Source: an uncultured Planctomycetia bacterium
Lineage (GTDB): Bacteria; Omnitrophota; Gorgyraeia; Tantalellales; Tantalellaceae
Assembly (NCBI GenBank): GCA_964572255.1
Contig: CAZNEE010000002.1
Location: 121,129 to 185,128 of the forward strand
Length of the DNA stretch: 64,000 bases
Direction of reading: 5' to 3'
In this document: piece after piece, positions 1,947-59,399 of the stretch
Numbering within the stretch: the first letter of the stretch is position 1
Layout of the letters: every line of letters begins with the position of its first letter
The notes under the pieces: generated by a model
Seen by the model: only the letters and a program-made list of their open reading frames with translations
The model's database searches: none
What the model was told of the DNA's origin: nothing
Program-made: the position numbers and the translations under genes

Positions 1947-3610
1947 TATTGCTTCTTGAATATCGCTCCGGTTGCGGCAGAAGTTACTTGCTGGGCATAT
2001 CTATAAAGATATCCCTCTTTTATCTTGTAGTCAGGATGCTGCCACTTTTCGAGGCGTTTTTTTATTTCATCTTCGTCAACTAAAAGTTCCAGTTTTTTAT
2101 TAGGTATATCTATCCGGATCTTGTCCCCTTCTTTAACGATAGCTATGGGACCGCCTTCCTGAGCTTCAGGAGAGATGTGTCCGATCGCTGCACCGCGTGT
2201 GCCGCCCGAAAATCTCCCGTCAGTGATAAGAGCAACGTCTTTATCCAGACCTTCACCCACAATTGCTGAAGTAGGGCTTAACATCTCACGCATTCCCGGT
2301 CCGCCTTTAGGCCCTTCATAACGAACGACTACAACATCGCCCTTTTTTATCTTTTTCCCCAGAATAGCTTTCATGGCATCTTCTTCCGAATCGAACACCC
2401 TTGCGGGACCTTCATGAACGAGCATGCTTTCATCGACCGCGGCTTTTTTGACCACGGCGCCGTCCGGACAAAGATTACCGAAAAGTATGCTTAACCCTCC
2501 ATCCGGTGAATACGGAGAATCTATCGGATGAATAACTTCCGGATCCAGGTTCTTTACATTCTTTATGTTGTCTTTTACTTTCTCTCCGGTAACGGTCATA
2601 GCATCAGTATTTATCAGATTTTTCTTGCTTAGTTCCAATATCACGGCTGGAATACCGCCAGCTGCATCAAGATCCTCTATATGATAAGTCCCCGCCGGTG
2701 ATATGCGGCACAGGTTCGGCGTACGTTCACTTACCTTGTTAAAAAGCTCAAGATCGAGTTTTATGCCGGCCTCGTTGGCTATCGCGGGGAGATGGAGAAC
2801 AGTATTTGTGGAACTCCCGAGCGCCATTTCAACAGCTACCGCGTTCTCAAAAGCCTTTTCGGTGGCTATATCCCTGGGTTTTATGTCTTTTTTAACAAGT
2901 TCCACTATTCTCTTGCCCGCTTCCACGGCAAGAAACCGTCTTTTTTCGGAAACCGCCGGGTAAGTCCCGTTGCCGGGCAGGCCCAGGCCCAGGGCTTCGC
3001 TTAGGCAGTTCATGGAATTGGCGGTAAACATTCCCGCGCATGAACCGCACCCGGGGCAAGCTGTATTTTCCAGTTCTTTCAGTTCTTCCTCGGTTATTTT
3101 TCCGGATGAATGCGCACCGACGCCTTCAAAAACAGTAATAAGGTCGATCGCCTTGCCGTCTTTTTTACCCGCGAGCATGGGGCCGCCGCTAAAGAAAATA
3201 GCGGGGATATTGAGCCTCAGCATCGCCATCATCATGCCGGGAACGATCTTGTCGCAGCTGGCCATACATAGAAGGCCGTCAAACGCGTAAGCCATACCCA
3301 TGGATTCAACGGAATCGGCGACTATCTCCCTCGAAGGAAGAGAATATTTCATGCCTTTATGCCCCATGGCTATACCGTCGCATATCCCTATCGTATTGAA
3401 TTCCATGGGAGTGCCGCCCGCCTCCCTGATGCCTTCTTTAACGGCTTCAACCAGGCCTCTGAGATGAATATGTCCGGGGATGACTTCATTAAAAGAATTC
3501 GCGATCCCTACTATGGGACGCGACAGATCCTCATCCGTGTAACCCATCGCCTTAAAAAGTGAGCGATGAGGAGCCCTTTCAATGCCTTTTTTCATTTGGT
3601 CTGAACGCAT
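1946..3610 (-). CDS. ilvD: dihydroxy-acid dehydratase
   Basis: 554 aa; [11 protein letters not shown] and [16 protein letters not shown] motifs typical of IlvD/EDD family. Confidence 0.9.
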
Positions 3611-3624
3611 ATCCTTCTCCTTTT

Positions 3625-4593
3625 TTACTTATATGCAATCCCTTTTAATTCTTCCACATATTGCTGAGCTGAATAAGCGGCCGTTGCCCCGTCTCCGCAG
3701 GCCGTTACGACCTGGTGTAAAACTTTTTTCGTGCAGTCTCCGCACGCGAATATACCGTTCTTTGAAGTTTTCATCGCCTCATCGACTATGATATTGCCTT
3801 TTTCCCCAAGCTCGACTACTCCATCAACAAAATCCGTACTCGGATGCCATCCGGTAAAAATAAAAACCCCCTCGCACGTGATCTCTTTCTTTTCGGCTGT
3901 ATCCACATCTCTAATGATAACTCTATTAACTTTCTCGTCGCCCTCAATACTTCCCACAACGGATTTCCATACAAATTCTACTTTTTCATTAGCCGAAATT
4001 TGTTCCTGCAGTATTCTGGCCGCGCGCAGGCGATCTCTTCTATGAATAAGAGTTACCTTGCTCGCAAAACGCGTAAGATAAAGCGCTTCTTCAACTGCGG
4101 TATCTCCGCCCCCCACAACTACAATTTCTTTATCTTTGAAAAATGCAGCGTCACAAATTGCGCAATAGGAAATACCTTTTCCCAAAAATTCTTTCTCGCC
4201 GGGAACATTCAACTTCTTCGGCCTGGCTCCGCTGGCGACTATAACAGAAAGTGCTTTATATGTTTTGTCTTCAGTCTCTGTTTTGCAAAGCAGGCAATCG
4301 TTTTCTTTTTCTTGATCAATGGATCTCACTGTCCCTGTCGTGCATTCAAGACCAAAGTTCTGAGCCTGTTTTTTAAATATATTTACAAGTTCAAATCCCC
4401 CGACACTTTCGATCCCGGGATAATTCTCTATTTTTTCCGTCATTGTCGCCTGGCCTATAACAGAAAAACTCTCAATTAAAAGAGTTTTCATGCGGGCTCT
4501 GGATGCATAAATCCCCGCTGTTAGCCCTGCCGGACCGCCGCCGACAATTATTATGTCATATACTTCTTGAGGAATATTCAACTTCCTATGCAT
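3625..4593 (-). CDS. trxB: thioredoxin-disulfide reductase
   Basis: FAD motif [14 protein letters not shown], redox CAICDA, NADPH motif [14 protein letters not shown]-terminal GDCT. Confidence 0.85.
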
Positions 4594-5315: not shown

Positions 5316-8300
5316 TTAAGCCGCTGCTCTGACTCCTAATTCCCTGTAAAATTCTTTCTTGAGGAGTTCTCTATCAATGGGCTCTGCTTTTGGCATGAAA
5401 GTAAATACCCTCGGGCTATCTTCATCAAACTCCAGCCCTATCTCGGGATAACTCTTCTTCAGTTCACTGATCAAGACTTCGAACGGTAAAACTTTATTAA
5501 AGGCAAGCTCTAAAGCCATGTTAATCATATCAACGATCCTTATGTAATTTTCTTCATTCCCATTCTCCGGCCGCTTATTGATCTGTTCAGGATCGATCCT
5601 CACCAAAAGCGCCCTGTCTCCCGTTTTAGGATCATGTAAAGGCTTGAACGCTTCTTCTTTTACTATATCCTCATGCCCTAAAACGATGATGTTCGAAAAG
5701 TTGACTTTTTTATTATCTGCTTCTTTCAGCAGCTGTCCGGCGAAATCATCCCCCTCTTTCCTGACAATATGGATATTTTTGATCCCGAGGCTTCCGGCGA
5801 TCCTGTATATCTCGCTTAAAAGCGGTTGTATTATATCGGCCTGTTCTTTTGGTATCCAGCTGGTCTCCAGCCCGATCATAATATTTTGTTCGTCATTTTT
5901 GACCCCCCCGCCAAGATCCCCATTTTTAACTTTATCGGCATAAAACCTGAGCATATCCATGAAAAGCATTGCCATCTCCTGAGCCCTGGTAAATTTGCCT
6001 TCTGTCCGCTTCCCTGCGGAAGGTTTATGTCTGATAAAATATAACGCGCTGTTATACACATGCTTGCTGTCCTTATAACTCGTTTCGACATCCATGATAT
6101 CGCCAGTGATCCCGCTCAATATTCTATATTTTCCGGCCGATCTGAGTATCTCGGCCACGGCGTCAATATCGCCCAGCTTTTCATCACGGGTTATGCACGG
6201 ATCATTCCATATCATCGCTATTCCATCATCATGGAGCATGACCGGCAATGCGCGGGCAAAGCGACTTAATGCGTCTCCCCCGATATCGCCGTCCCAATAG
6301 CTTGCAAGTTTTTTGTGCCAGGCGGGCACACTCTCTCCCGGCGAATCGATCAAGTTAGGCATGTTCCAGATGATCCTGTCGAAAACGCCGTCAAAAACAG
6401 GTTCTCCGTTTTCTGAAATTATATTATCATGGGTCACGGTCTCGATATCAAACCCGGCTATCTTAGCGGTCAGGCGAGTGTTTGCCGCTGCAAGCGGATT
6501 TATATCAACGGCATAGATCTTTCTGCCTGTTTTAAGATACGCTATCCAGCTGTCTATGCCCGAACCGGAACCCGCGATCAAGACCCTATGCCCCTTATCC
6601 AATCCTATATCATTCCACATAGCAGGGATTATCTTGGCATCAGAAACCGTCATTTCCGCCGGCGTATATACAGTGGGAAATACCGGGATAATGATCTTCT
6701 TTTTGCCTTCTTCTTCTTTAAAAATTCTTTCAAAATCCTGGTCGGATAATGTTTCCGGGGTAAAGGTCTGTATATCTATTTTTCCTGTCAGGGTATCAAC
6801 CCCGATATAATTATAGATATCTGTTTCCTGGCGGTTGAAATTTGAAATAAGCTGGCCTTGTCTTCTTCTCTCAGCGGCAAAAGAAAGCAGCAGCTTCTTG
6901 TCCGCATTCCTTCTTGTTATGAAATCTTTCCATTTCTGCGCGGCCTCAGGATCGGTCATATCGGGAAAAACAAAATTGTAAGGCGTAAGATCCAGATAAT
7001 AGATTTCATCCTGTGCGGGAGCGCCTTTGACAACAGGAAATATCCCTATTAAAAGACCCTGTTCATTATGTAAAAACTCGAATTCCCTTGTTTTCTCTCC
7101 GGCAAGTTCTCTATAAAGCACATCTAATCCGCGCGGAGTTCCGTACATCATAGATGTTTCGGGGATCCTTATCGTGCGAATGATGGTATTACTCCACCCT
7201 TGTCTTTCGGAAATTATACCGGCCTTATTGATCTCCAATGCCTGCAGGAACTCCCACGAAGCCATGTCTTTATAAAAAGCTGCGTCAGCCTCCTGCGCCT
7301 TGACCAATTTTGTTCCCGTTGCAACTGCTTCTTGTTTCTTGCCTGGAATGAAACGAACTTCAGATCTTATCTTTCCCTCGATATTGTCCAGTTCATCCAA
7401 AACATAATCACCAAAGATTTTTACTGCCTTTCCTTTTATGGGAACATCCGATACAACAAATGTACTGTCATCAAAAACTTTTATGAACTTATGAAAACGT
7501 TCTTTATTGTCAGTATCTTCGATATATACAGGAATTTTTTCCGCAGAATAAGCCTCTCCGACAACGGCTTCGAACGGTTTAAATCCCCTGTTTTTCCTTC
7601 TGAAATCAGGCCCTATATACTCATCTCCTTTCAGTTCAAAACCCAGATCTTCCACAACACTCACCAGGAAAGGATTCTGAACAAAAATGCCAAATTCTAT
7701 GTAGTAAGAACCGTTGTAAATAGCCCCCTGTTTCAGTCCGGACAACAGAACTTCCAGGAATGCCCGGGCGTACCCTCTATTCCTGTAAAGATTATCAACA
7801 AAAATACAATCGATTTCCGTGTCATTAAATCTGATATAACCAACAGGATCCCCATCCCCGCCGTAAAAATCCAGACTGCCATGATTCTCGGAAGACATGG
7901 GGAAATATTCGAAGAACAGTTTTTCATTATTGGGTGTAATAACATGCCCTGAGTAGCCTTCTTCTTCGAAAATGCTATTGCAGACTTCAGTTATTTCAAT
8001 AACCTCAGGATATTCCTCGGCAAAAGTCGCTGCTGTCAACCTTCTCTCTTTTAATGACCTCAAATAAGGCCCGACCATGATAGAACCAGTGTGATCGCCT
8101 TTCATCCAATAAGCGCCATCAATATAAGTAACAGGGGTATTATTCTCTAAAATAGCGACCCAATTATGCGTATAAGGCTTATCAAAGCCCCAATAATATC
8201 CTCCGACAACTTCCACTCGGCTGGGCGAATCCCCTCCCAATGGTAATCCATATTTCCTGGAAATGATCTCCGCCAGAGCTAAGGCGGAAATATAGCATTC

Positions 8301-11300
8301 TTTTACCGGGTATCCTTTTTTCACTTTTTGCCGCATAAGTTCCGTAAAACGATTTTCAATAGCTTTGAGATGCAAATACAAATTATCATCCGATGGCAGC
8401 ACTGAATGCGGATCTTGAACCTTGCCGTCACCGTAACCCGGAGGTCCGGGTTCGGATTTTAATTCGTTCTCTCCATCATACACCCTTATGCCCGAAGCCC
8501 AATCACTCTTATCGTACGGCCAAACTGTTACTTTCTTTCCTCCATGCCTAACTCCGATATAATATGGTTGCCCCATTAACGTTATGCTTCCATCTTTTCC
8601 GATCTTTCTTTCTGCAGGTATTGAGGGTTTTTTACGTACCACCTTTTTTCTCGGCTTTTTGACCATCTCATGCTTTTTACGTTTCTTTGTTCCTTTATTA
8701 TGGGAATTATAGCTCTCGATCAATCTTTCTACGGAATATTCTCCTGCAACTTCTTCCTCACTTTTTTCTTCCCCCTTCATCCTGTACCCAAGATGCGCGA
8801 CTTCATGGTTAAGCCATCTGGCATAAGAAACTAGATCATTTCTTCTGATCATTCCCAGAAATTCAAGAACTTTGCGCGGGATCAGCAGATTGCAGGAACG
8901 CGCAGCGCCATTTTCATCTCTCCAGGACCCGGGGTGAGTGATAAGTCTGAACGAACCTTTTTCCGGAAAAGAGATATTGCTTGTTTCTGCAAATTTATAA
9001 AGAACATCATAGAAATATTTCTCGGGGGGGCTATGTATATGGATCTCTTCTTCTATGCCCCTGCTTCTCATCTCGCTTAAGATATCTTGCCCTAATCCTT
9101 TTTCTGTTGAGATCTTATGATCTCTTTCAAATACATCCCAATAAACCCCCCATGTTTTATTGATAACGGCGTGCTGCTGGGCATTTAACACATACTGAAC
9201 CCATCTGCCGTCTTTTTTTACTAAAGCAATCGCGGGCGGATCATCGGAAGGAATGCCTTTTTTCTTATCCGATAACCTTGGCGATTCAGGCATTTTCCGT
9301 CCCCGGGAATAATTAAAACCTCTTCCATATCTGTCTCCGCTTCTTCTTTCTCCATCAATGTAAAACGTCAATTTCGGGCTGACTTCCTTGACTTTCACTG
9401 AGACAGCTTCACCTTCACTAAATCTTTTGCCTCCGCAAAGACTAAGGGGCATGAAACCTTTAACTTCTCCCTCATAAACAAGTTCATATCCCGCCAATGA
9501 ACCATCGCTCCTGCGGCGAGACTCTCTATTTACGAACACCTTAACTTCCTCTCCCGATCTCTCAGCTGCCTCCAATTCATACAATAGATCTCTTTTTCTT
9601 TCATTCGCCATCATCTGTCTTCGGCGAATAGAGAACCTGGGTTCGGGAATTATCCCCCTCCATTTACAATCGACGAGAACAACGTTCACTTTTCTGCCAA
9701 GCATATCATCAGGATTAGTTCCATAGGGGCATTCTCTCGAGCTAATGCGTCCTTTTATCTCCTTGAATTCAACCACGTAGTAGTCAAATTTGCCTCTATA
9801 ACTGTAATGATCTTCCACGATCTTGACCCTAAAAACTTTTTCAGGATCATCTTCCCCCTGCTTTATCTCTCTGATACCTAAATGATAATTAAAGACGGAT
9901 TTTGCTTTTTCGTCCAACTTGTCCAAAATAGCCTTTGATATTTTTTTATATTCATCTTCTTCTTTGCTGACCAAATAAGAAAACTCTGCGGGTTTTTCTA
10001 TTCTGCGCCTTGCATCAACAAACCTGTTCAAGTCCGCTTCTGCAATACAGTTTTCCGCTTTTCTTTTTGCTTTTGGCAAACCATGTTTTTTTAAATATAA
10101 AAAAGCCTCCAGGCTTGACAGCCTGCCTAAGCCGTCTATTTTCCCTTCAGCAGCCAACTTCATTCTTTCTTCGATCCTTTCATCTAAAAGGACTATTATC
10201 CTAATCTTTTCCCGGAAAAAAGCTTCCCTCTCTCCGAGCTTTAGGGCTTTCCATGCCCTATCGGAAAGTTTGAACTTATCACGTCTCCTGCTGTCGCTTT
10301 TCAGTAATTTACGTTCTTCCAAAAGGTCAATGACGTCTATAAGTTTGATCCGCTCATCATGAATCTTTTTCCTTACATGATCTCTCATTTCCCCTAAGAC
10401 ACGATCGGCTTCTTTCTTTGCATCTATTTCCGGCAATAATTCCGGGCGTTCATCCAAAACTTTATCGAGAAACACCGTAAAATGATCCGCCAGATCATCA
10501 TCACCCATGCTCCTAAGCTCTCCCAGGCGCCTGCGCATTTCATCAACCGCATAAGATGCTCTTTCAGGTTTCTCTTCACGTATAATCTCAAGGATATCAT
10601 TGAGCTCATCTCTCGTTCTTTCTCCCGAAGAATGAGTATCTTCACTTCCTTTATCCTTATCCGCGGGCTGGTCTGTGTGGGGCGTACCCGGGCCGAAACC
10701 GTCGGTCTTATCTTTATTGTACAAAACCTTAATGCTGAAATTTGGACTGCCCCCCTTTAAGGGGCCTGTCCTTCCGCTCAACATTATTTCTTTCACATCG
10801 GCGTTAAACTTTTCAGGAGCATCTCTCGGTATCCGCGGCTTGCCTCTTATTTCTATTAATACGTCTTCAACCGACTGAGCCACAACGCCGATTACCTTAT
10901 TCCCGATCTTAACGACCAGTTTTTCGTCTATTGTAATAACGGTGCCTTCCCTTAACTCTTTGACAAGCTCCAGTTCCTCTGTCCATTCATTACGTTCTAT
11001 CTTATATTTATTCTTTGTTCCTTCAACATGCTTTAAACGGAGATAAGCCAGCGGAAATACTGTTTCTATGTCTCTGATCTCGATCTCGCCCATCACATCA
11101 TAACTCCAGAAGCCTTCACCTGTCTTAGCGTCATTAATATCCTCGAAGCTTTGCCACTCCCGGCTTTTTTCGTAATTAAGAAGATCTCCGGAATAGAAAG
11201 TGACCTTTATTTCGTCAGCGAAATATTTTTTGAACACGTGTAGGTTATATAGCCAGGGTGTATCTATATAAATTTCATTGATCCCGTTTGTGACAGCAAA

Positions 11301-27787: not shown

Positions 27788-27946
27788 AGCAGATTTTAAT
27801 CGTAAACTGTTCGCAAGAGCAGGACACAAAGCCAAAGGGGCTAAACAATGCTTTCAGCCAGCCGGCTGCCGATTGACACATCGTTAAAGTGTTGGCATAA
27901 GTATTGATCAGACCCAACCTTTCGATGGTTGGGTTTTTTGTTTTTT
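27788..27946 (+). promoter_or_regulatory. c-di-GMP-I (GEMM) riboswitch-like leader with intrinsic terminator, upstream of the first PEP-CTERM gene
   Basis: AAACUGUUC-GCAA-GAGCAGGACACAAAGCC...GGGGCUAAACAAUGC closely matches the Vibrio Vc2 aptamer (AAACCAUUC-GAAA-GAGUGGGACGCAAAGCC...GGCCUAAACCAUUGC). Followed by hairpin CCCAACC-UUUCGAU-GGUUGGG plus a U-tract. Confidence 0.7.
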
Positions 27947-28056
27947 ATAAGTAAAAAGTTTTTAAAAGGAGGTGATGAAAAATATTTCTTGCAAGTTTTT
28001 TTGCAGTTATATATAGGTAAGTTTTAAAAATCTAAGAAGAAAGTGAGGTGATAACG

Positions 28057-28659
28057 ATGAAGAAAATGTTGATCTTGATCTGTTTTGTATTAGCTATAGC
28101 GTTTATGGTAATACCATCGAAAGTTGAAGCTAGAACCATCGAAGATGATGAAGATATAGGCCCACCTCCTGGAACAGTACTCGAATATTGTGAGTGGTGG
28201 CCAAGTGAAACGGGTGACCCGGATTTTATAGATCTGAATTCTGGTGACAATTATTATGACCCTGAAACTGAAACTATCGTTTCAATGACAATCTCTGTTT
28301 GGGGAAGATCTAGCGATCAGCATGATGGTCAAGACAGCACAATTGAAGTATATATAGGCAGTACTGCTACTCCGGGGAGTCATTTGCAGCACGAGACCAT
28401 AACTCATGGCGATGAACTGGAGACAAAAACTATCACATTAAATGCTGCTGCTCTGGCCGATATCTCTGGAGACGGTAAAATAAACCTTAGATGGCACGGT
28501 CTTTCCGGAGGCGCAGGTGATCCTGACGGAGACACATTTGCTTTGGCTGGCTACCCTTCCTACGAAGCACATACCCCCGAACCGGCAACAATTATATCAC
28601 TACTTCTGGGCGGATTGGGAATGGCAGTAAAGAGGAAAAAGTTGTTCTTTAAGCAATAA
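28057..28659 (+). CDS. secreted PEP-CTERM sorting-signal protein
   Basis: GAGGTG sits 6 nt upstream of ATG at 28057. Signal peptide MKKMLILICFVLAIAFMVIPSKVEA, acidic mature region, and C-terminal TPEPATIISLLLGGLGMAVKRKK (PEP motif, hydrophobic helix, basic tail). Confidence 0.75.
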   Translation: MKKMLILICFVLAIAFMVIPSKVEARTIEDDEDIGPPPGTVLEYCEWWPSETGDPDFIDLNSGDNYYDPETETIVSMTISVWGRSSDQHDGQDSTIEVYIGSTATPGSHLQHETITHGDELETKTITLNAAALADISGDGKINLRWHGLSGGAGDPDGDTFALAGYPSYEAHTPEPATIISLLLGGLGMAVKRKKLFFKQ

Positions 28660-52268: not shown

Positions 52269-52862
52269 TTAACTTGTAAACTTTTTTACTGCCGTTCCTA
52301 ATAAAGCAAGGCCTAACATCACCATGCTTGCGGGTTCCGGAGATCCATAAATACCTCGTGCGGCACCTCCCTCGTCACTAATTGCTGCCGCTCCGACCCC
52401 GAAATAATAGGGCGAACTGCCCGCTTCCGGTACGACAAATGTATCGAACCCTTCTTGTTTTCCGACCAAGCTCACAACATCAGAATCAACCAATGTTAAT
52501 GTGCTATCCATCAATACAAAAACAACTGCATCGCCGAACTGTTCGTTATTCGAGTACCATTTGTAATTGATTACATCCCCTACTGAAAAAGAGGTAGGTG
52601 CAACATTGAACACCCCTTCATTAACAGTGGTAATTTTAAATATCGCCATATGTTCCGTATGATCAGCTTCATCTGAATCTTCAGGTGACTTTTCAACAGA
52701 TACACTTGGTCCGTTAGGTGCCCAATTTGTCATGTCGCGCATTTCTAAAAGAATATTACTCAATCCGAGCTCCCACATATTATATGTCGCAGCTTCAGCA
52801 CAAATTGTTAACGCAAATAATAGTGCAATAAACAATATAAAAGCTAAACAACATTTCTTCAT
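52269..52862 (-). CDS. secreted PEP-CTERM sorting-signal protein, paralog 2
   Basis: Same RBS/start context as the 28057 gene (GAGGTG 6 nt upstream of ATG). Signal peptide MKKCCLAFILFIALLFALTICAEA. C-terminal SPEPASMVMLGLALLGTAVKK. Confidence 0.75.
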   Translation of the reverse strand: MKKCCLAFILFIALLFALTICAEAATYNMWELGLSNILLEMRDMTNWAPNGPSVSVEKSPEDSDEADHTEHMAIFKITTVNEGVFNVAPTSFSVGDVINYKWYSNNEQFGDAVVFVLMDSTLTLVDSDVVSLVGKQEGFDTFVVPEAGSSPYYFGVGAAAISDEGGAARGIYGSPEPASMVMLGLALLGTAVKKFTS

Positions 52863-52892
52863 CATTCTCACCTCACTTTCTTTTTAGATTTT

Positions 52893-53046
52893 AAAAAACA
52901 AAAACCCAACCATCGAAAGGTTGGGTTACTGATTTTCTCCAACACTTTAACGATGTGTTAATCGGCAGCCGGCTGGCTAATTTCTTTCCTAGCCCCTTTG
53001 GCTTTGTTGCCCCGTTCTTCCGAACGGTTTACGATTAAAATCTGTC
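52893..53046 (-). promoter_or_regulatory. c-di-GMP-I (GEMM) riboswitch-like leader with intrinsic terminator, copy 2
   Basis: Minus strand: AAACCGUUC-GGAA-GAACGGGGCAACAAAGCC...GGGGCUA..., then ACCCAACCUUUCGAUGGUUGGGUUUUUGUUUUUU. The P2 stem shows compensatory changes relative to copy 1. Confidence 0.7.
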
Positions 53047-56206: not shown

Positions 56207-56758
56207 ATGAAAATAGGAAAAAGCATACGAAGATTGCGGAAAGAAAAGAATATCACGCTTGAAGAGCTGTCCAGTAAAAGCGGCGTTGCGTTGGCCACAT
56301 TAAGCCGCATGGAAAATGATAAAATGACCGGCACACTTGATTCTCACGAAAGAATATGCAAGGCCCTGGGAGCATCCCTTGCCGATCTGTACCGTGAAGT
56401 CGAAGATGAATCAAAAACCGTGGAAACCGTCCCGAAACATAAAAGAACGGAGCACTTTGTCCACGCGAATAAAGCGGTGTATGAACTTCTTGTAAGCAAG
56501 ACGTTCGGTAAGAAGATCATGCCTCTTATGATAAAGATCGAACCCGACGGGCACACTCAAAAAGAGAAGAATAAACCCGGTGTTGAAAAATTTGTATATA
56601 TGCTGAAAGGGGCGATTGACGTGCATGTGGGAGATGAGACCTACACTCTTAAACAAGGGGACAGCCTGTATTTTGACGCGTCGCTTGATCATTTTCTGAA
56701 AAACAGATCAAAGCAAGAGGCTGAGGCTATATGCATAGTCTCCCCTCCCGCGCTTTAA
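56207..56758 (+). CDS. XRE-family HTH transcriptional regulator with C-terminal cupin domain
   Basis: AAGGGAGG RBS then ATG at 56207. [34 protein letters not shown] and a cupin C-terminus. Confidence 0.75.
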
Positions 56759-57174: not shown

Positions 57175-58533
57175 TTATTCCTCTATTTTGCTGTTCAGAT
57201 TGAATCTTCCTTTACGGTAGGCCAGAAGAAAAGCGCTCACGACTATGGGGTCAAATTGCGTGCCCGCGGCATCCTTTATTATCTGGACAGCGACCTCGGA
57301 CATGCTCCTCTGCCTGTACGGCCTGTCGCTGGTTATCGCGTCAAACGTATCCGCCACGGCTATTATCCGGGCTATGAACGGTATATCTTCACTCTTCAGC
57401 CCGTCCGGATATCCGGTCCCGTCATACCTTTCATGATGCGCGCGTATCTCATCAGCTATGTTCCCGAGCTCCCTTATGGAATAAAGGATAGAAGAGCCCG
57501 TTGAAGGATGCTCCTTGACCCTCTCGTATTCTTCTTTTGTCAGCTGACCGTTCTTGTTCAGGATGCTGTCGGGAACGCCGACCTTGCCTACATCATGAAG
57601 AAGAGCCGATAAATGCAGTGTTTCTATGAAATTCTTATATTCGTTAGCCTCAGGGAGGTCTTTCAGTTCATTTGCCAGTACCAGCGAGTACTGGGTAACC
57701 CTCTCAGTATGTCCGTGCGTGTAAGGATCCCTTGAATCTATCGCGGCGGCAAGAGAGATCGAGGTCCTGATGAACACGTCATGTTCCTTCTCATAAAGGT
57801 TGTGTATCTCGTATATCTTGTCCTCGAGGTCCTGAATGAGCTGGGTGTTGGCAAGCGCCATGGCGGCGTCATTGGCCAGGGTCGTGAAAAAGCCTATCTC
57901 CTGCCTCGAATAAGTTTCTCCCGAAAGTTTTCTGCCGAGAAGGAATATTCCGCTCAGATCTTTCCCGCAATATACAGGCACGCATATATTCGCCTTCAAC
58001 AGCTCCATCTGCCTGAGCGCCCTTTTTACAAGCTCGGCGAGCGCGGGGCTCTTTACGATATGCTCGTTCTTGTCAAAAGAATCGATAAGTTTATCATAAT
58101 CAACAGCCTGGGTAAAAGATACCTTATAGTTAATGCTTTCGTTAAAAAAACGTATCAAGGGGTCCTTCAACGTAAGTTTTATAAAACCGACGGGTATCTT
58201 GATGCCTTCCGCGCCGACACTGTCAATAAGGGTAAAAGTATCTCCCGATTTGTTCCTTAAAAGCATTGCCGTATGAGTTACCTGGACCTGCTCGTCAATG
58301 CTCTTAGTGATCATCCTGATGAGCTTTTCGGGTTTTTTAATGCGCAGCATCCCGCGCGAAACGTTCTCGAGCACGACCTGGTAGTCACGTTCGGGCTTCG
58401 GCCTCTGGAGGACCTCATGGCTTTCTATAGCCGGGGGGACATCCTCCGAATGCCTGATCTTCTCTGCTATCCAGTCCTGCAATTTAAGCCAGTTAGTATT
58501 CTCTTCGGGCATTTTCTCTTCCGATCGCTTCAA
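57175..58533 (-). CDS. HD-GYP domain c-di-GMP phosphodiesterase with N-terminal GAF-like domain
   Basis: HGHTERV...LHDVGK...HHERYDGTGYP (HD and GYP signatures). Confidence 0.85.
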   Translation of the reverse strand: MKRSEEKMPEENTNWLKLQDWIAEKIRHSEDVPPAIESHEVLQRPKPERDYQVVLENVSRGMLRIKKPEKLIRMITKSIDEQVQVTHTAMLLRNKSGDTFTLIDSVGAEGIKIPVGFIKLTLKDPLIRFFNESINYKVSFTQAVDYDKLIDSFDKNEHIVKSPALAELVKRALRQMELLKANICVPVYCGKDLSGIFLLGRKLSGETYSRQEIGFFTTLANDAAMALANTQLIQDLEDKIYEIHNLYEKEHDVFIRTSISLAAAIDSRDPYTHGHTERVTQYSLVLANELKDLPEANEYKNFIETLHLSALLHDVGKVGVPDSILNKNGQLTKEEYERVKEHPSTGSSILYSIRELGNIADEIRAHHERYDGTGYPDGLKSEDIPFIARIIAVADTFDAITSDRPYRQRSMSEVAVQIIKDAAGTQFDPIVVSAFLLAYRKGRFNLNSKIEE

Positions 58534-58910
58534 GTGTTACTATTGATCCTGATATTATCCGCCGCGCTCAGAACTGTTCTTTCAAGATGGTCGAGTAAAA
58601 GCGGTTTTGTAATGTATTCTATAGCGCCTAATTTTTTGGTTTCTTCTATCTTGCCGGCATCTCTAACGCCGCTTACAATTATGACACTGCAATTATTCCC
58701 AGTTTTCCTTATCTCTTTCAATGTCTCGATGCCGTTCATGATCGGCATATTTATATCCAAAATAACTATTTCGGGATTCTCGGCCTCGACCAGCCGTATC
58801 GCCTCTTTCCCGTTATGGGCCATGAAGGTCTGAAAATCCCTTTCCCTGAAGAAAGTTTTCAGGAAATCACATATATCAACTTCGTCATCGACGATCAATA
58901 TCTTTATCAT
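58530..58910 (-). CDS. response regulator receiver domain protein
   Basis: MIKILIVDDEV...ILDINMPIMNG...VSGVRD. Start set at the ATG that overlaps the upstream stop (ATGA). Confidence 0.75.
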   Translation of the reverse strand: MIKILIVDDEVDICDFLKTFFRERDFQTFMAHNGKEAIRLVEAENPEIVILDINMPIMNGIETLKEIRKTGNNCSVIIVSGVRDAGKIEETKKLGAIEYITKPLLLDHLERTVLSAADNIRINSNT

Positions 58911-59068
58911 CTGTTCTCCTGATCCTCGATCCATTTGTCAATCGTTTCTCTCTTGAAACGCCATTTTGACCCTACTTTGAAGGCGGGAATTTTCCCCTCT
59001 TGAGCGTGCTTATAGATCGTAGCGTTTTTCATCTTAAGATATTCAGCTACTTCTTCTACCGTCATCAT
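58907..59068 (-). CDS. excisionase-family (AlpA/Xis-like, MerR superfamily) HTH DNA-binding protein, 53 aa
   Basis: MMTVEEVAEYLKMKNATIYKHAQEGKIPAFKVGSKWRFKRETIDKWIEDQENR fits the 'helix-turn-helix, excisionase family' pattern. Its stop overlaps the receiver gene start. Too short for the ORF track. Confidence 0.5.
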   Translation of the reverse strand: MMTVEEVAEYLKMKNATIYKHAQEGKIPAFKVGSKWRFKRETIDKWIEDQENR

Positions 59069-59237
59069 TGTGCTAACAACCATAACTCCCCCTGAACTTA
59101 GTAAATATTACTATGCTTTAATACAAATTGGATTTTATTGCGCCAAATTGCGCTCTTTTGGCGTTATTTGTTACTTATTAGATAGTATAATGAGAGAAAT
59201 AGTCCAAGTCAAGTTTTGGCATTATTTATCAGATCTC

Positions 59238-59399
59238 TATATATGCGGTTTGAACTGTTTGGAGCAGGGCATCAAATCTGCGAGCGGGCAAGGTTCGCCA
59301 GCTGTTAAATCGCAGCGAGAGCGAGAAGATTTCTGAGTCAAAATTTCTCGCTGGGAAATTTTGACGTCCCTGCGAAAGACAGTTTAAACCGCATATATA
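59238..59399. repeat. ~160-nt palindromic repeat element, copy 2 (inverted relative to copy 1)
   Basis: Terminal repeats TATATATGCGGTTTGAACTGTT / AACAGTTTAAACCGCATATATA. The interior is ~85-90% identical to the reverse complement of 34102-34247. Ends 2 nt from the pgpA stop codon. Confidence 0.65.

Follow-up and report, generated by a model that had tools for sequence, protein, structure and literature searches.

A three-gene HTH_17, receiver, and GAF-HD-GYP cluster in an uncultured Omnitrophota bacterium and its relatives across the phylum

The subject of this analysis is a three-gene cluster on the minus strand of a 64,000-nucleotide (nt) stretch of contig CAZNEE010000002.1 from an uncultured Omnitrophota bacterium (the whole stretch, at its full length, is hereafter called the window). 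In the direction of transcription, the genes encode a small helix–turn–helix (HTH) protein of the HTH_17 family, a stand-alone receiver (REC), and a GAF-HD-GYP protein predicted to be a cyclic di-GMP (c-di-GMP) phosphodiesterase. A preliminary description, made from the sequence alone, had presented them as an operon with overlapping junctions; the three open reading frames (ORFs) lie where it had placed them, as tightly packed as expected of an operon, and its domain assignments proved correct by profile, motif, and fold. On balance, we lean toward the view that the operon derives by reduction from a cluster shared across Omnitrophota, in which a BldC-like leader regulator precedes a split RpfG-like REC/HD-GYP module.

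Genes and features of the locus

The product of the leader gene is a member of both the Pfam family HTH_17 (PF12728; 68.7 bits, cutoff 27) and the TIGR01764 "excise" family (66.4 bits, cutoff 28.8). The ORF described earlier is present, but its start had been placed at 59068, giving a protein of 53 amino acids (aa), whereas the start is most likely to be 59083, 15 nt further upstream, judging from the GGGGGAG tract directly 5′ of it, the public gene call (58 aa), and the N-termini of the orthologues. The ATGA in which the stop codon of the HTH gene overlaps the start codon of the receiver gene is found both in the sequence and in the public call of the 126-aa REC. The structure of the HTH protein predicted with AlphaFold2 (pLDDT 91) was most similar to those of DNA-bound BldC (6ama), RdfS (8dgl), and the Xis of mycobacteriophage Pukovnik (4j2n), with TM scores of 0.70–0.78 and sequence identities of 20–23%. 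A PDB profile search with the HTH alignment matched no solved structure, and the fold comparison alone was informative. The likeness to BldC is at the fold level only, the BldC family model NF033787 scoring 21.5 bits on the HTH protein against a cutoff of 77. HTH_17 itself is generic and very large, comprising 12,381 clusters at 50% identity (E ≤ 1e-3), many of which contain tandem HTH_17 repeats.

The receiver scored 96.3 bits against Response_reg (PF00072; cutoff 30.2). Its residues D8, D9, and D52, a serine, and K102 align with D12, D13, D57, T87, and K109 of CheY, and the full phosphorylation set is kept. The orthologous receivers share the same N-terminal start, MI(K/R)(I/L)L(I/V)VDDE.

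The third gene had been described as overlapping the receiver gene by 4 nt. Such an overlap requires translation to begin at the TTG at 58533 (452 aa, junction TTGA), whereas the ATG at 58512 is better supported, by the public calls (445 aa) and by the N-terminus of the closest orthologue; a GGAAGAG purine tract lies 5′ of it, and the spacer to the receiver gene is then 17 nt. With either start, the two genes are tightly packed. The protein matched HD_5 (PF13487; 138.9 bits, cutoff 27.2) and HD (65.3 bits). Its metal-binding and catalytic motifs, HGHTERV, LLHDVGK, KEHP, and HHERYDGTGYP, are intact and align to those of PmGH and V-cGAP3, and the key residues, in HGHTERV, LLHDVGK, and HHE..DG.GYP, are invariant in 22 orthologues. 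The Pfam GAF model scored 19.7 bits on this protein, under its cutoff of 22.4; support for the domain comes from orthologues with precomputed GAF or GAF_2 matches, from a PDB profile search that matched the GAF domains of 3ci6 and 3o5y, and from residues 50–235 of the AlphaFold2 model (pLDDT about 75–92), which matched many GAF structures with a target-normalised TM of about 0.7. The best whole-chain match of the predicted fold was PmGH (4mcw; E 1e-14, 407 aligned columns), and the PDB profile matches included V-cGAP3 (5z7c, 168.9 bits), PmGH (139.9 bits), and PA4781 (4r8z, 103.7 bits). A further motif, DPYTHGH (residues about 269–275), is also invariant in the 22 orthologues; its tyrosine aligns with the glutamate of DPETQNH in PmGH and with the tyrosine of SPYTAGH in V-cGAP3. 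The glutamate of PmGH is reportedly the ligand position of the third metal. A tyrosine at this position may indicate a binuclear rather than a trinuclear metal centre, and the motif may bear on both the nuclearity of the centre and the choice of substrate. The likely substrate is c-di-GMP.

The promoter-like site that precedes the HTH gene in the window (Table 1) recurs in the orthologous locus L001, which carries the same TTGACT-N16-(CTCAT)TATACT (N16 or N17 between the two loci). The window and L001 also share a leader sequence of 24 nt, CAATTTGTATTAAAGCATA(G/A)TAAT, whose core, TGTATTAAA, is located at −42 relative to the HTH start in the window, at −88 in L001, and at −52 in L008. We regard the window copy, CAATTTGTATTAAAGCATAGTAAT, as a candidate for an operator or a leader element. 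Direct repeats of the form AAATAA(T/C)GCCAAAA flank the promoter-like site of the window at 59214–59227 and 59156–59169. A palindrome, GAG(T/C)ATATACTC, which is found near the promoters of L001 and L170, was set aside as a candidate element, being missing from the window.

A structured repeat of 160 nt (59238–59399), composed of two 32-nt inverted-repeat arms that are 84% complementary and enclose 98 nt with nested hairpins, sits between the stop codon of pgpA and the promoter-like site. The predicted RNA folds are strong for both strands, with −71.5 kcal/mol (z = −9.3) for the minus-strand transcript and −76.5 kcal/mol for that of the plus strand. The repeat matched no Rfam family, had no second copy in the window, and was absent from the orthologous intergenic regions, its only other occurrences being in public contigs identical to that of the window. 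The possibility that it is a riboswitch, a small RNA, or an operator was rejected, as it belongs to no Rfam family, is not conserved, and lies upstream of the conserved promoter, and it is not counted in the system.

Table 1. Positions of the three genes, their presumed upstream elements, and other features discussed in the text (window coordinates)
Feature	Position	Strand	Evidence
Leader gene; HTH_17 / "excisionase-family" winged-helix DNA-binding protein, 58 aa	58907–59083	minus	Pfam, TIGR01764, public gene call, orthologues, AlphaFold2 fold
Stand-alone receiver (REC), 126 aa	58530–58910	minus	Response_reg, junction sequence, public call P0121
GAF-HD-GYP predicted phosphodiesterase, 445 aa from ATG 58512	57175–58512	minus	HD_5, motifs, PDB profile matches, fold
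Promoter-like TTGACT-17-TATACT, about 100 nt 5′ of the HTH start	59184–59212	minus	Consensus scan, 10/12 matches
Conserved 24-nt motif CAATTTGTATTAAAGCATAGTAAT, presumed 5′ leader	59107–59130	minus	23/24 nt identical to L001 (1979–2002)
Convergent orphan receiver, 117 aa	56774–57127	plus	Response_reg 107 bits
XRE-HTH + cupin regulator, 183 aa (public call)	56207–56758	plus	HTH_3/HTH_26 + Cupin_2
c-di-GMP-I riboswitch, outside the operon	27791–27873	plus	RF01051 58.7 bits, gathering score 35, full-length model match
203-aa protein, signal peptide + PEP-CTERM-like C-terminus TPEPATIISLLLGGLGMAVKRKK	28048–28659	plus	Translation, C-terminus similar to that of the other riboswitch-controlled protein
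c-di-GMP-I riboswitch, outside the operon	52961–53043	minus	RF01051 48.3 bits, gathering score 35, full-length model match
200-aa PEP-CTERM protein with signal peptide, C-terminus SPEPASMVMLGLALLGTAVKK	52269–52871	minus	PEP-CTERM 20.7 bits, exactly at cutoff

Conservation of the cluster in Omnitrophota

Profile scans of genome and metagenome contigs with the HD-GYP alignment returned mostly generic HD-GYP proteins, with about eight close orthologous loci among the matches listed, and further locus contexts were obtained from exact-protein look-ups. The adjacency of the receiver and HD-GYP genes was assessed in 11 orthologous loci (the window, L001, L006, L008, L164–L167, L169, L171, and L172), and the position of the HTH gene in the nine loci that reach the start of the cluster (the window, L001, L006, L008, and L168–L172); in seven orthologous loci, the sequence ends short of where an upstream HTH gene would lie. 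Well over 100 full-length orthologues of the HD-GYP protein were found, with 56–72% identity. A search with the HTH protein alone identified about 70 orthologues in Omnitrophota, which are 56–80 aa long and 68–93% identical, so that the HTH protein is more conserved than the enzyme.

The receiver gene was directly upstream of the HD-GYP gene in all 11 loci, the two genes either overlapping or lying up to about 100 nt apart, and the same order was found in most homologues of 35–42% identity, including those from Planctomycetes-labelled metagenome-assembled genomes. Because the receiver adjoins the enzyme in every orthologous locus examined and that of the window keeps its CheY-type residues, the pair looks like a split RpfG-type regulator with a PmGH-like GAF domain.

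The HTH gene was the first gene of a co-directional cluster in nine of nine loci, and its distance from the next gene lay between an ATGA overlap and 60 nt, whatever gene followed. That gene encoded the receiver (the window and L008), a short kinase (L001 and L169), a ketoacyl synthase (L168 and L170), or a protein of 409 aa (L171), 183 aa (L172), or 222 aa (L006). The shortest layouts were those of L008 (membrane/TPR genes-HTH-REC-HD-GYP, with no kinase), L006 (fabH-fabD-HTH-222-aa protein-REC-HD-GYP), and L169 (pgpA-HTH-short HATPase protein-REC-HD-GYP-XRE/cupin-uvrA). A second receiver was present in L001 (pgpA-HTH-271-aa kinase-REC-REC-HD-GYP) and, together with a histidine kinase (HK), in L171 (pgpA-HTH-409-aa protein-HK-REC-REC-HD-GYP) and L172 (HTH-183-aa protein-methyltransferase-HK-REC-REC-HD-GYP). 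In L168 and L170, the order pgpA-HTH is followed by about 7 kb of genes for ketoacyl synthases, an SDR protein, ACP, and an amine oxidase, and then by the HK gene.

In L164–L167, the order was HK-REC-REC-HD-GYP, and no HTH_17 ORF was found within 3.5–5 kb. From these four loci alone, the HTH gene might have been judged not to be conserved; this reading was dropped when the contexts of the HTH orthologues placed the gene beyond the 5-kb flanks, ahead of variable cargo. The genes just upstream of the kinase in L165–L167 encode a ketoacyl synthase, an FMN reductase, an amine oxidase, and a methyltransferase, which are the same kinds as those that follow the HTH gene in L168 and L170. The cargo of the latter two loci (7213–14180 in L168 and 7232–13819 in L170) comprises three ketoacyl synthases, an SDR/ketoreductase, ACP, an amine-oxidase/phytoene-desaturase-like protein, and a nitroreductase or FMN-reductase, followed by the kinase; adjoining pgsA-pgpA, it may represent a lipid- or polyene-type pathway.

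The gene upstream of the HTH gene may be pgpA, fabD, or one for a TPR membrane protein, and in all three settings the linkage to the HD-GYP gene is kept; this survival of the linkage when the neighbour changes argues that the HTH gene is tied to the genes downstream of it rather than to the housekeeping backbone. For 13 HTH orthologues, the longest contig has exactly the length recorded for an HD-GYP or receiver orthologue, which suggests that they share contigs. As judged from these gene orders, the usual layout of the cluster is HTH-[cargo]-HK-REC-REC-HD-GYP, of which the window carries a reduced version. The direct juxtaposition of the HTH and receiver genes in the window results from the lineage-specific loss of the genes that normally part them, namely a kinase, a first receiver, and in some loci a biosynthetic cargo. 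The preliminary description had called the pairing of the HTH protein with a receiver and an HD-GYP enzyme unusual, but it is not peculiar to this locus, the HTH gene being a conserved Omnitrophota gene that stands first in the corresponding cluster of all relatives whose sequence reaches the cluster start. A lack of conservation of the small ORF upstream of orthologous REC/HD-GYP pairs had been named there as a ground for refutation; the ORF is conserved in that position, usually one to eight genes upstream and not abutting the pair.

The contig of the window is present in public data (L081–L083), and named homologues place it in Omnitrophota. Around the cluster, the gene order in the public gene calls is pnp, dut, uppP, ftsK, rodZ, rimO, pgsA, pgpA, HTH, REC, and HD-GYP, followed by the convergent genes of the orphan receiver and the XRE-cupin regulator and then by uvrA. 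The GC content of the region is 0.39–0.50, against a window mean of 0.43, with no compositional island. The orphan receiver is syntenic with the receiver of a second two-component set, HK-(HK)-REC-XRE/cupin-uvrA, in L164, L165, and L167, and the XRE-cupin gene is present in these loci as well as in L169 and L172. In L172, a gene for an IS200/IS605-type Y1 transposase (6860–7339) lies between the XRE-cupin gene and uvrA. No homologue of a histidine kinase was found anywhere in the 64-kb window, despite its two receiver genes, whereas in the orthologous Omnitrophota loci two to four kinases (HisKA_7TM-GAF-HATPase and HisKA_7TM-HisKA-HATPase) surround the same genes. The lineage of the window appears to have deleted both sets of kinases cleanly.

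Function of the cluster and alternative readings

In the reading that we favour, the receiver and the GAF-HD-GYP protein would together form a split response regulator of the RpfG type, in which the enzyme is modulated in trans according to whether the stand-alone receiver is phosphorylated. The two genes would be transcribed together with the leader gene, and the enzyme would hydrolyse c-di-GMP and thereby lower the pool available to readers elsewhere, such as the two c-di-GMP-I riboswitches that precede PEP-CTERM exoprotein genes in the window. The 58-aa HTH_17 protein would be a transcriptional regulator with a BldC/Xis fold, encoded by the leader gene and probably autoregulating from its own promoter and leader. 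The cognate kinase and the first receiver would have been deleted in the genome of the window; with both gone, the surviving receiver needs another source of phosphate, either a small phospho-donor or a kinase whose gene lies elsewhere in the genome.

The closest parallel to the REC/HD-GYP pair is RpfC/RpfG (RpfG of Xanthomonas; PA4781 of Pseudomonas, 4r8z), in which a receiver is likewise coupled to an HD-GYP domain, and most Omnitrophota relatives also have a kinase in the cluster. The window pair is not an RpfG member by architecture, however, as its receiver and enzyme are separate polypeptides divided by the stop codon at 58530–58532; moreover, the enzyme has an N-terminal GAF domain of its own, the relatives have two receivers, and the window has no kinase. 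PmGH of Persephonella marina (4mcw) has the same two-domain GAF-HD-GYP architecture as the window enzyme, but the identity is only about 26%, and DPYTHGH stands in place of the DPETQNH of PmGH. V-cGAP3 of Vibrio cholerae (VCA0931, 5z7c) shares the PYT.GH motif with the window enzyme and differs from it in having a second, degenerate HD-GYP-like domain as its N-terminus. The window contains no pointer to cGAMP signalling but has two c-di-GMP riboswitches.

For the HTH protein, the nearest known counterparts are BldC of Streptomyces and RdfS of the integrative and conjugative elements of Mesorhizobium, which are also single-domain winged-helix proteins of about 60 aa. Both are transcription regulators that oligomerise on DNA (PMC11963761). 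The window protein is only 20–23% identical to them. A relative outside Omnitrophota shows a different setting for the same kind of gene: in locus L173 (6001–12207), a 68-aa HTH_17 protein that is 66% identical to the window HTH is encoded directly upstream of the genes for a 1741-aa DEAD/helicase-MZB protein and an SNF2-family helicase, in what looks like a defence-type operon. Given that small HTH_17 leader genes head very different operons, a regulator of whatever follows is the most economical reading, which for the window makes the HTH protein a transcriptional regulator of the cluster that it heads. Our literature searches, which covered HTH_17 with response regulators, the excisionase family with HD-GYP, and c-di-GMP in Omnitrophota, turned up no report on an association of the kind seen in this cluster.

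Several observations weigh against this overall interpretation. The 64-kb window encodes no kinase that could supply the phosphorylation input. In L008, a more distant Omnitrophota locus, the orthologous receiver (3589–3990) has a cysteine in place of the acceptor aspartate (VLCINTD) and a serine at one position of the acidic pocket, making it a pseudo-receiver; given the cysteine at the acceptor position, the REC/HD-GYP pair does not depend on phosphorylation in every lineage. The best-scoring solved relative of the enzyme by sequence is V-cGAP3, which is specific for 3′3′-cGAMP, and an invariant tyrosine occupies the position at which PmGH has its third-metal glutamate. The promoter-like sites in the region are no more frequent in the consensus scan than expected by chance, and the leader motif was found in only three of nine loci. 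The seven orthologous loci whose sequences stop too near the pair give no view of whether an HTH gene is present. Finally, the pnp-to-uvrA neighbourhood is syntenic in Omnitrophota, and the linkage between the HTH and HD-GYP genes may in part be inherited gene order.

The last point can be extended to a separate explanation, in which the HTH gene is kept by inherited gene order without any specific tie to the receiver and the enzyme, and its product regulates something else or acts as a nucleoid-associated or global regulator. We consider this unlikely. The run pnp-dut-uppP-ftsK-rodZ-rimO-pgsA-pgpA-HTH...uvrA is indeed syntenic across Omnitrophota, a level of conservation of 68–93% identity is unusually high for a local regulator, and BldC, to which the predicted fold is most similar, regulates development globally (PMC11963761). 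However, the HTH gene still heads the REC/HD-GYP cluster when its upstream neighbour is fabD (L006) or the TPR membrane protein gene (L008), and deletions of cargo always leave it 0–60 nt before the next gene on the same strand. In addition, the leader gene itself was the sole HTH_17 match in the HTH-bearing loci that were screened (within L001–L167 and L168–L170), and no second HTH_17 gene was present in the public gene calls of L171 and L172, which were not screened in six frames.

It is rather improbable that the HTH protein and the receiver instead make up a response regulator of the DNA-binding type split over two chains. The HTH protein would then be the primary partner of the receiver, which would control its binding to DNA, and the GAF-HD-GYP enzyme would be regulated separately through its own GAF domain. 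The ATGA overlap of the HTH and receiver genes in the window is of the type seen in translational coupling, the GAF domain is a possible independent sensory input, and natural single-chain HTH_17-REC proteins exist whose domains and domain order correspond to the first two genes of the window cluster. Two such proteins were found, P0175 (192 aa) and P0176 (187 aa); the HTH of P0175 closely resembles that of the window, with which it shares the signature EVAEYL...GKLPGFKVGxxWRF...WI. These two were, however, the only fusions among the 120 matches listed, and the 2.6-kb contig that encodes P0175 (L174) has no HD-GYP or kinase gene beside it, its neighbours lacking recognised domains. In the window, the two domains are encoded by separate genes, and among the relatives these genes are mostly not adjacent: other genes part the HTH from the receiver in seven of nine loci, whereas the receiver always adjoins the HD-GYP gene.

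A bolder version of the favoured reading seems to us improbable, and we mention it as speculation. Here, the HTH protein would be a phylum-specific, BldC-like master regulator, and the receiver would act on both the HTH protein and the HD-GYP enzyme, so that a single phosphorylation event would switch transcription and the second messenger at once, for instance when the cell decides on a surface or attachment lifestyle, with riboswitch-controlled PEP-CTERM proteins as the read-out. The modular cluster that the HTH gene heads would then couple a variable cargo, notably the lipid or polyene pathway of about 7 kb beside pgsA-pgpA (ketoacyl synthases, ACP, SDR, and amine oxidase), to a c-di-GMP-degrading two-component cassette.

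Two annotations suggested by database matches are effectively refuted. The HTH protein matches TIGR01764 and PHROG excisionase families (e.g., phrog_66 with 49.8 bits), its top structural matches include an Xis fold, and it is weakly similar to the Xis of Tn916 (19.3 bits, under the cutoff), yet we give almost no credence to a true excisionase (a recombination directionality factor) or a remnant of a mobile element, given that for about 8 kb in both directions the public gene calls are free of integrase, transposase, and phage genes, that the neighbours are housekeeping genes, that there is no GC island, and that the gene occupies the same chromosomal position in many Omnitrophota; the preliminary description, which had noted the lack of integrase and phage genes nearby and doubted an excisionase for that reason, is borne out. 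The gene content of the locus likewise speaks decisively against MAD1 of the methylation-associated defence system (MADS), a small HTH_17 leader gene of the same format: the equivalog NF047737 scored 80.0 bits on the HTH protein, exactly its cutoff of 80, PADLOC mad1 scored 30.8 bits, and a bona fide MAD1 (P0353) is 56% identical, but NF047737 covers only the generic 49-residue HTH, no defence gene is adjacent in the public gene calls or by PADLOC, the MADS partner genes (methyltransferase, ATPase, and others) are missing, the downstream genes of the window encode signalling proteins, and relatives outside Omnitrophota head other operons, as in L173. Overall, the PADLOC and PHROG scans returned generic HTH matches only.

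Cyclic di-GMP signalling and significance for Omnitrophota

Both c-di-GMP-I riboswitches reported earlier in the window score above the Rfam gathering score, and the presence of two such riboswitches means that the organism uses c-di-GMP signalling. The label of surface proteins given to the products of the downstream genes is also reasonable, as both are roughly 200 aa long and have a signal peptide and a PEP-CTERM-like C-terminus. Apart from the C-terminus, the two proteins are unrelated to each other. The gene at 52269–52871 is followed by genes for an 816-aa TPR protein and a MotA/ExbB protein. Elsewhere in the window, a 3767-aa ORF occupies 5316–16619 on the minus strand, in which Pfam recognised only a short pentapeptide-repeat stretch near residues 430–500.

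Distances of 4 kb and 29 kb separate the riboswitches from the operon, and their co-location with it had been taken as a sign of a local c-di-GMP regulatory circuit. This proposal was not supported by the comparison with relatives. No riboswitch was found in 13 orthologous loci (142 kb in total), and in L172, the one locus that extends past uvrA, the TPR gene comes directly after uvrA, with no riboswitch or PEP-CTERM gene. Because c-di-GMP is a diffusible messenger, its readers need not be nearby, and the riboswitches are plausible readers of the pool that the enzyme would lower.

Every component of the cluster comes from a well-known family, and no new kind of mechanism is involved; what is new, to a modest degree, is the conservation of an HTH_17 leader gene. 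It also carries a warning for annotation, as the HTH protein is likely to be labelled "excisionase" or, by a score exactly at the cutoff, "MADS MAD1", neither of which fits. Omnitrophota are uncultivated, and their signalling is hardly known. In members of the phylum, a highly conserved small HTH_17 gene is followed by a conserved cassette that encodes a kinase, two receivers, and a GAF-HD-GYP enzyme, and some lineages, including that of the window, have stripped this cassette to the HTH protein, the receiver, and the enzyme. The result is a compact three-protein system in which the control of an HD-GYP enzyme in trans by a stand-alone receiver may be studied, together with a candidate operator region for a BldC-like regulator.

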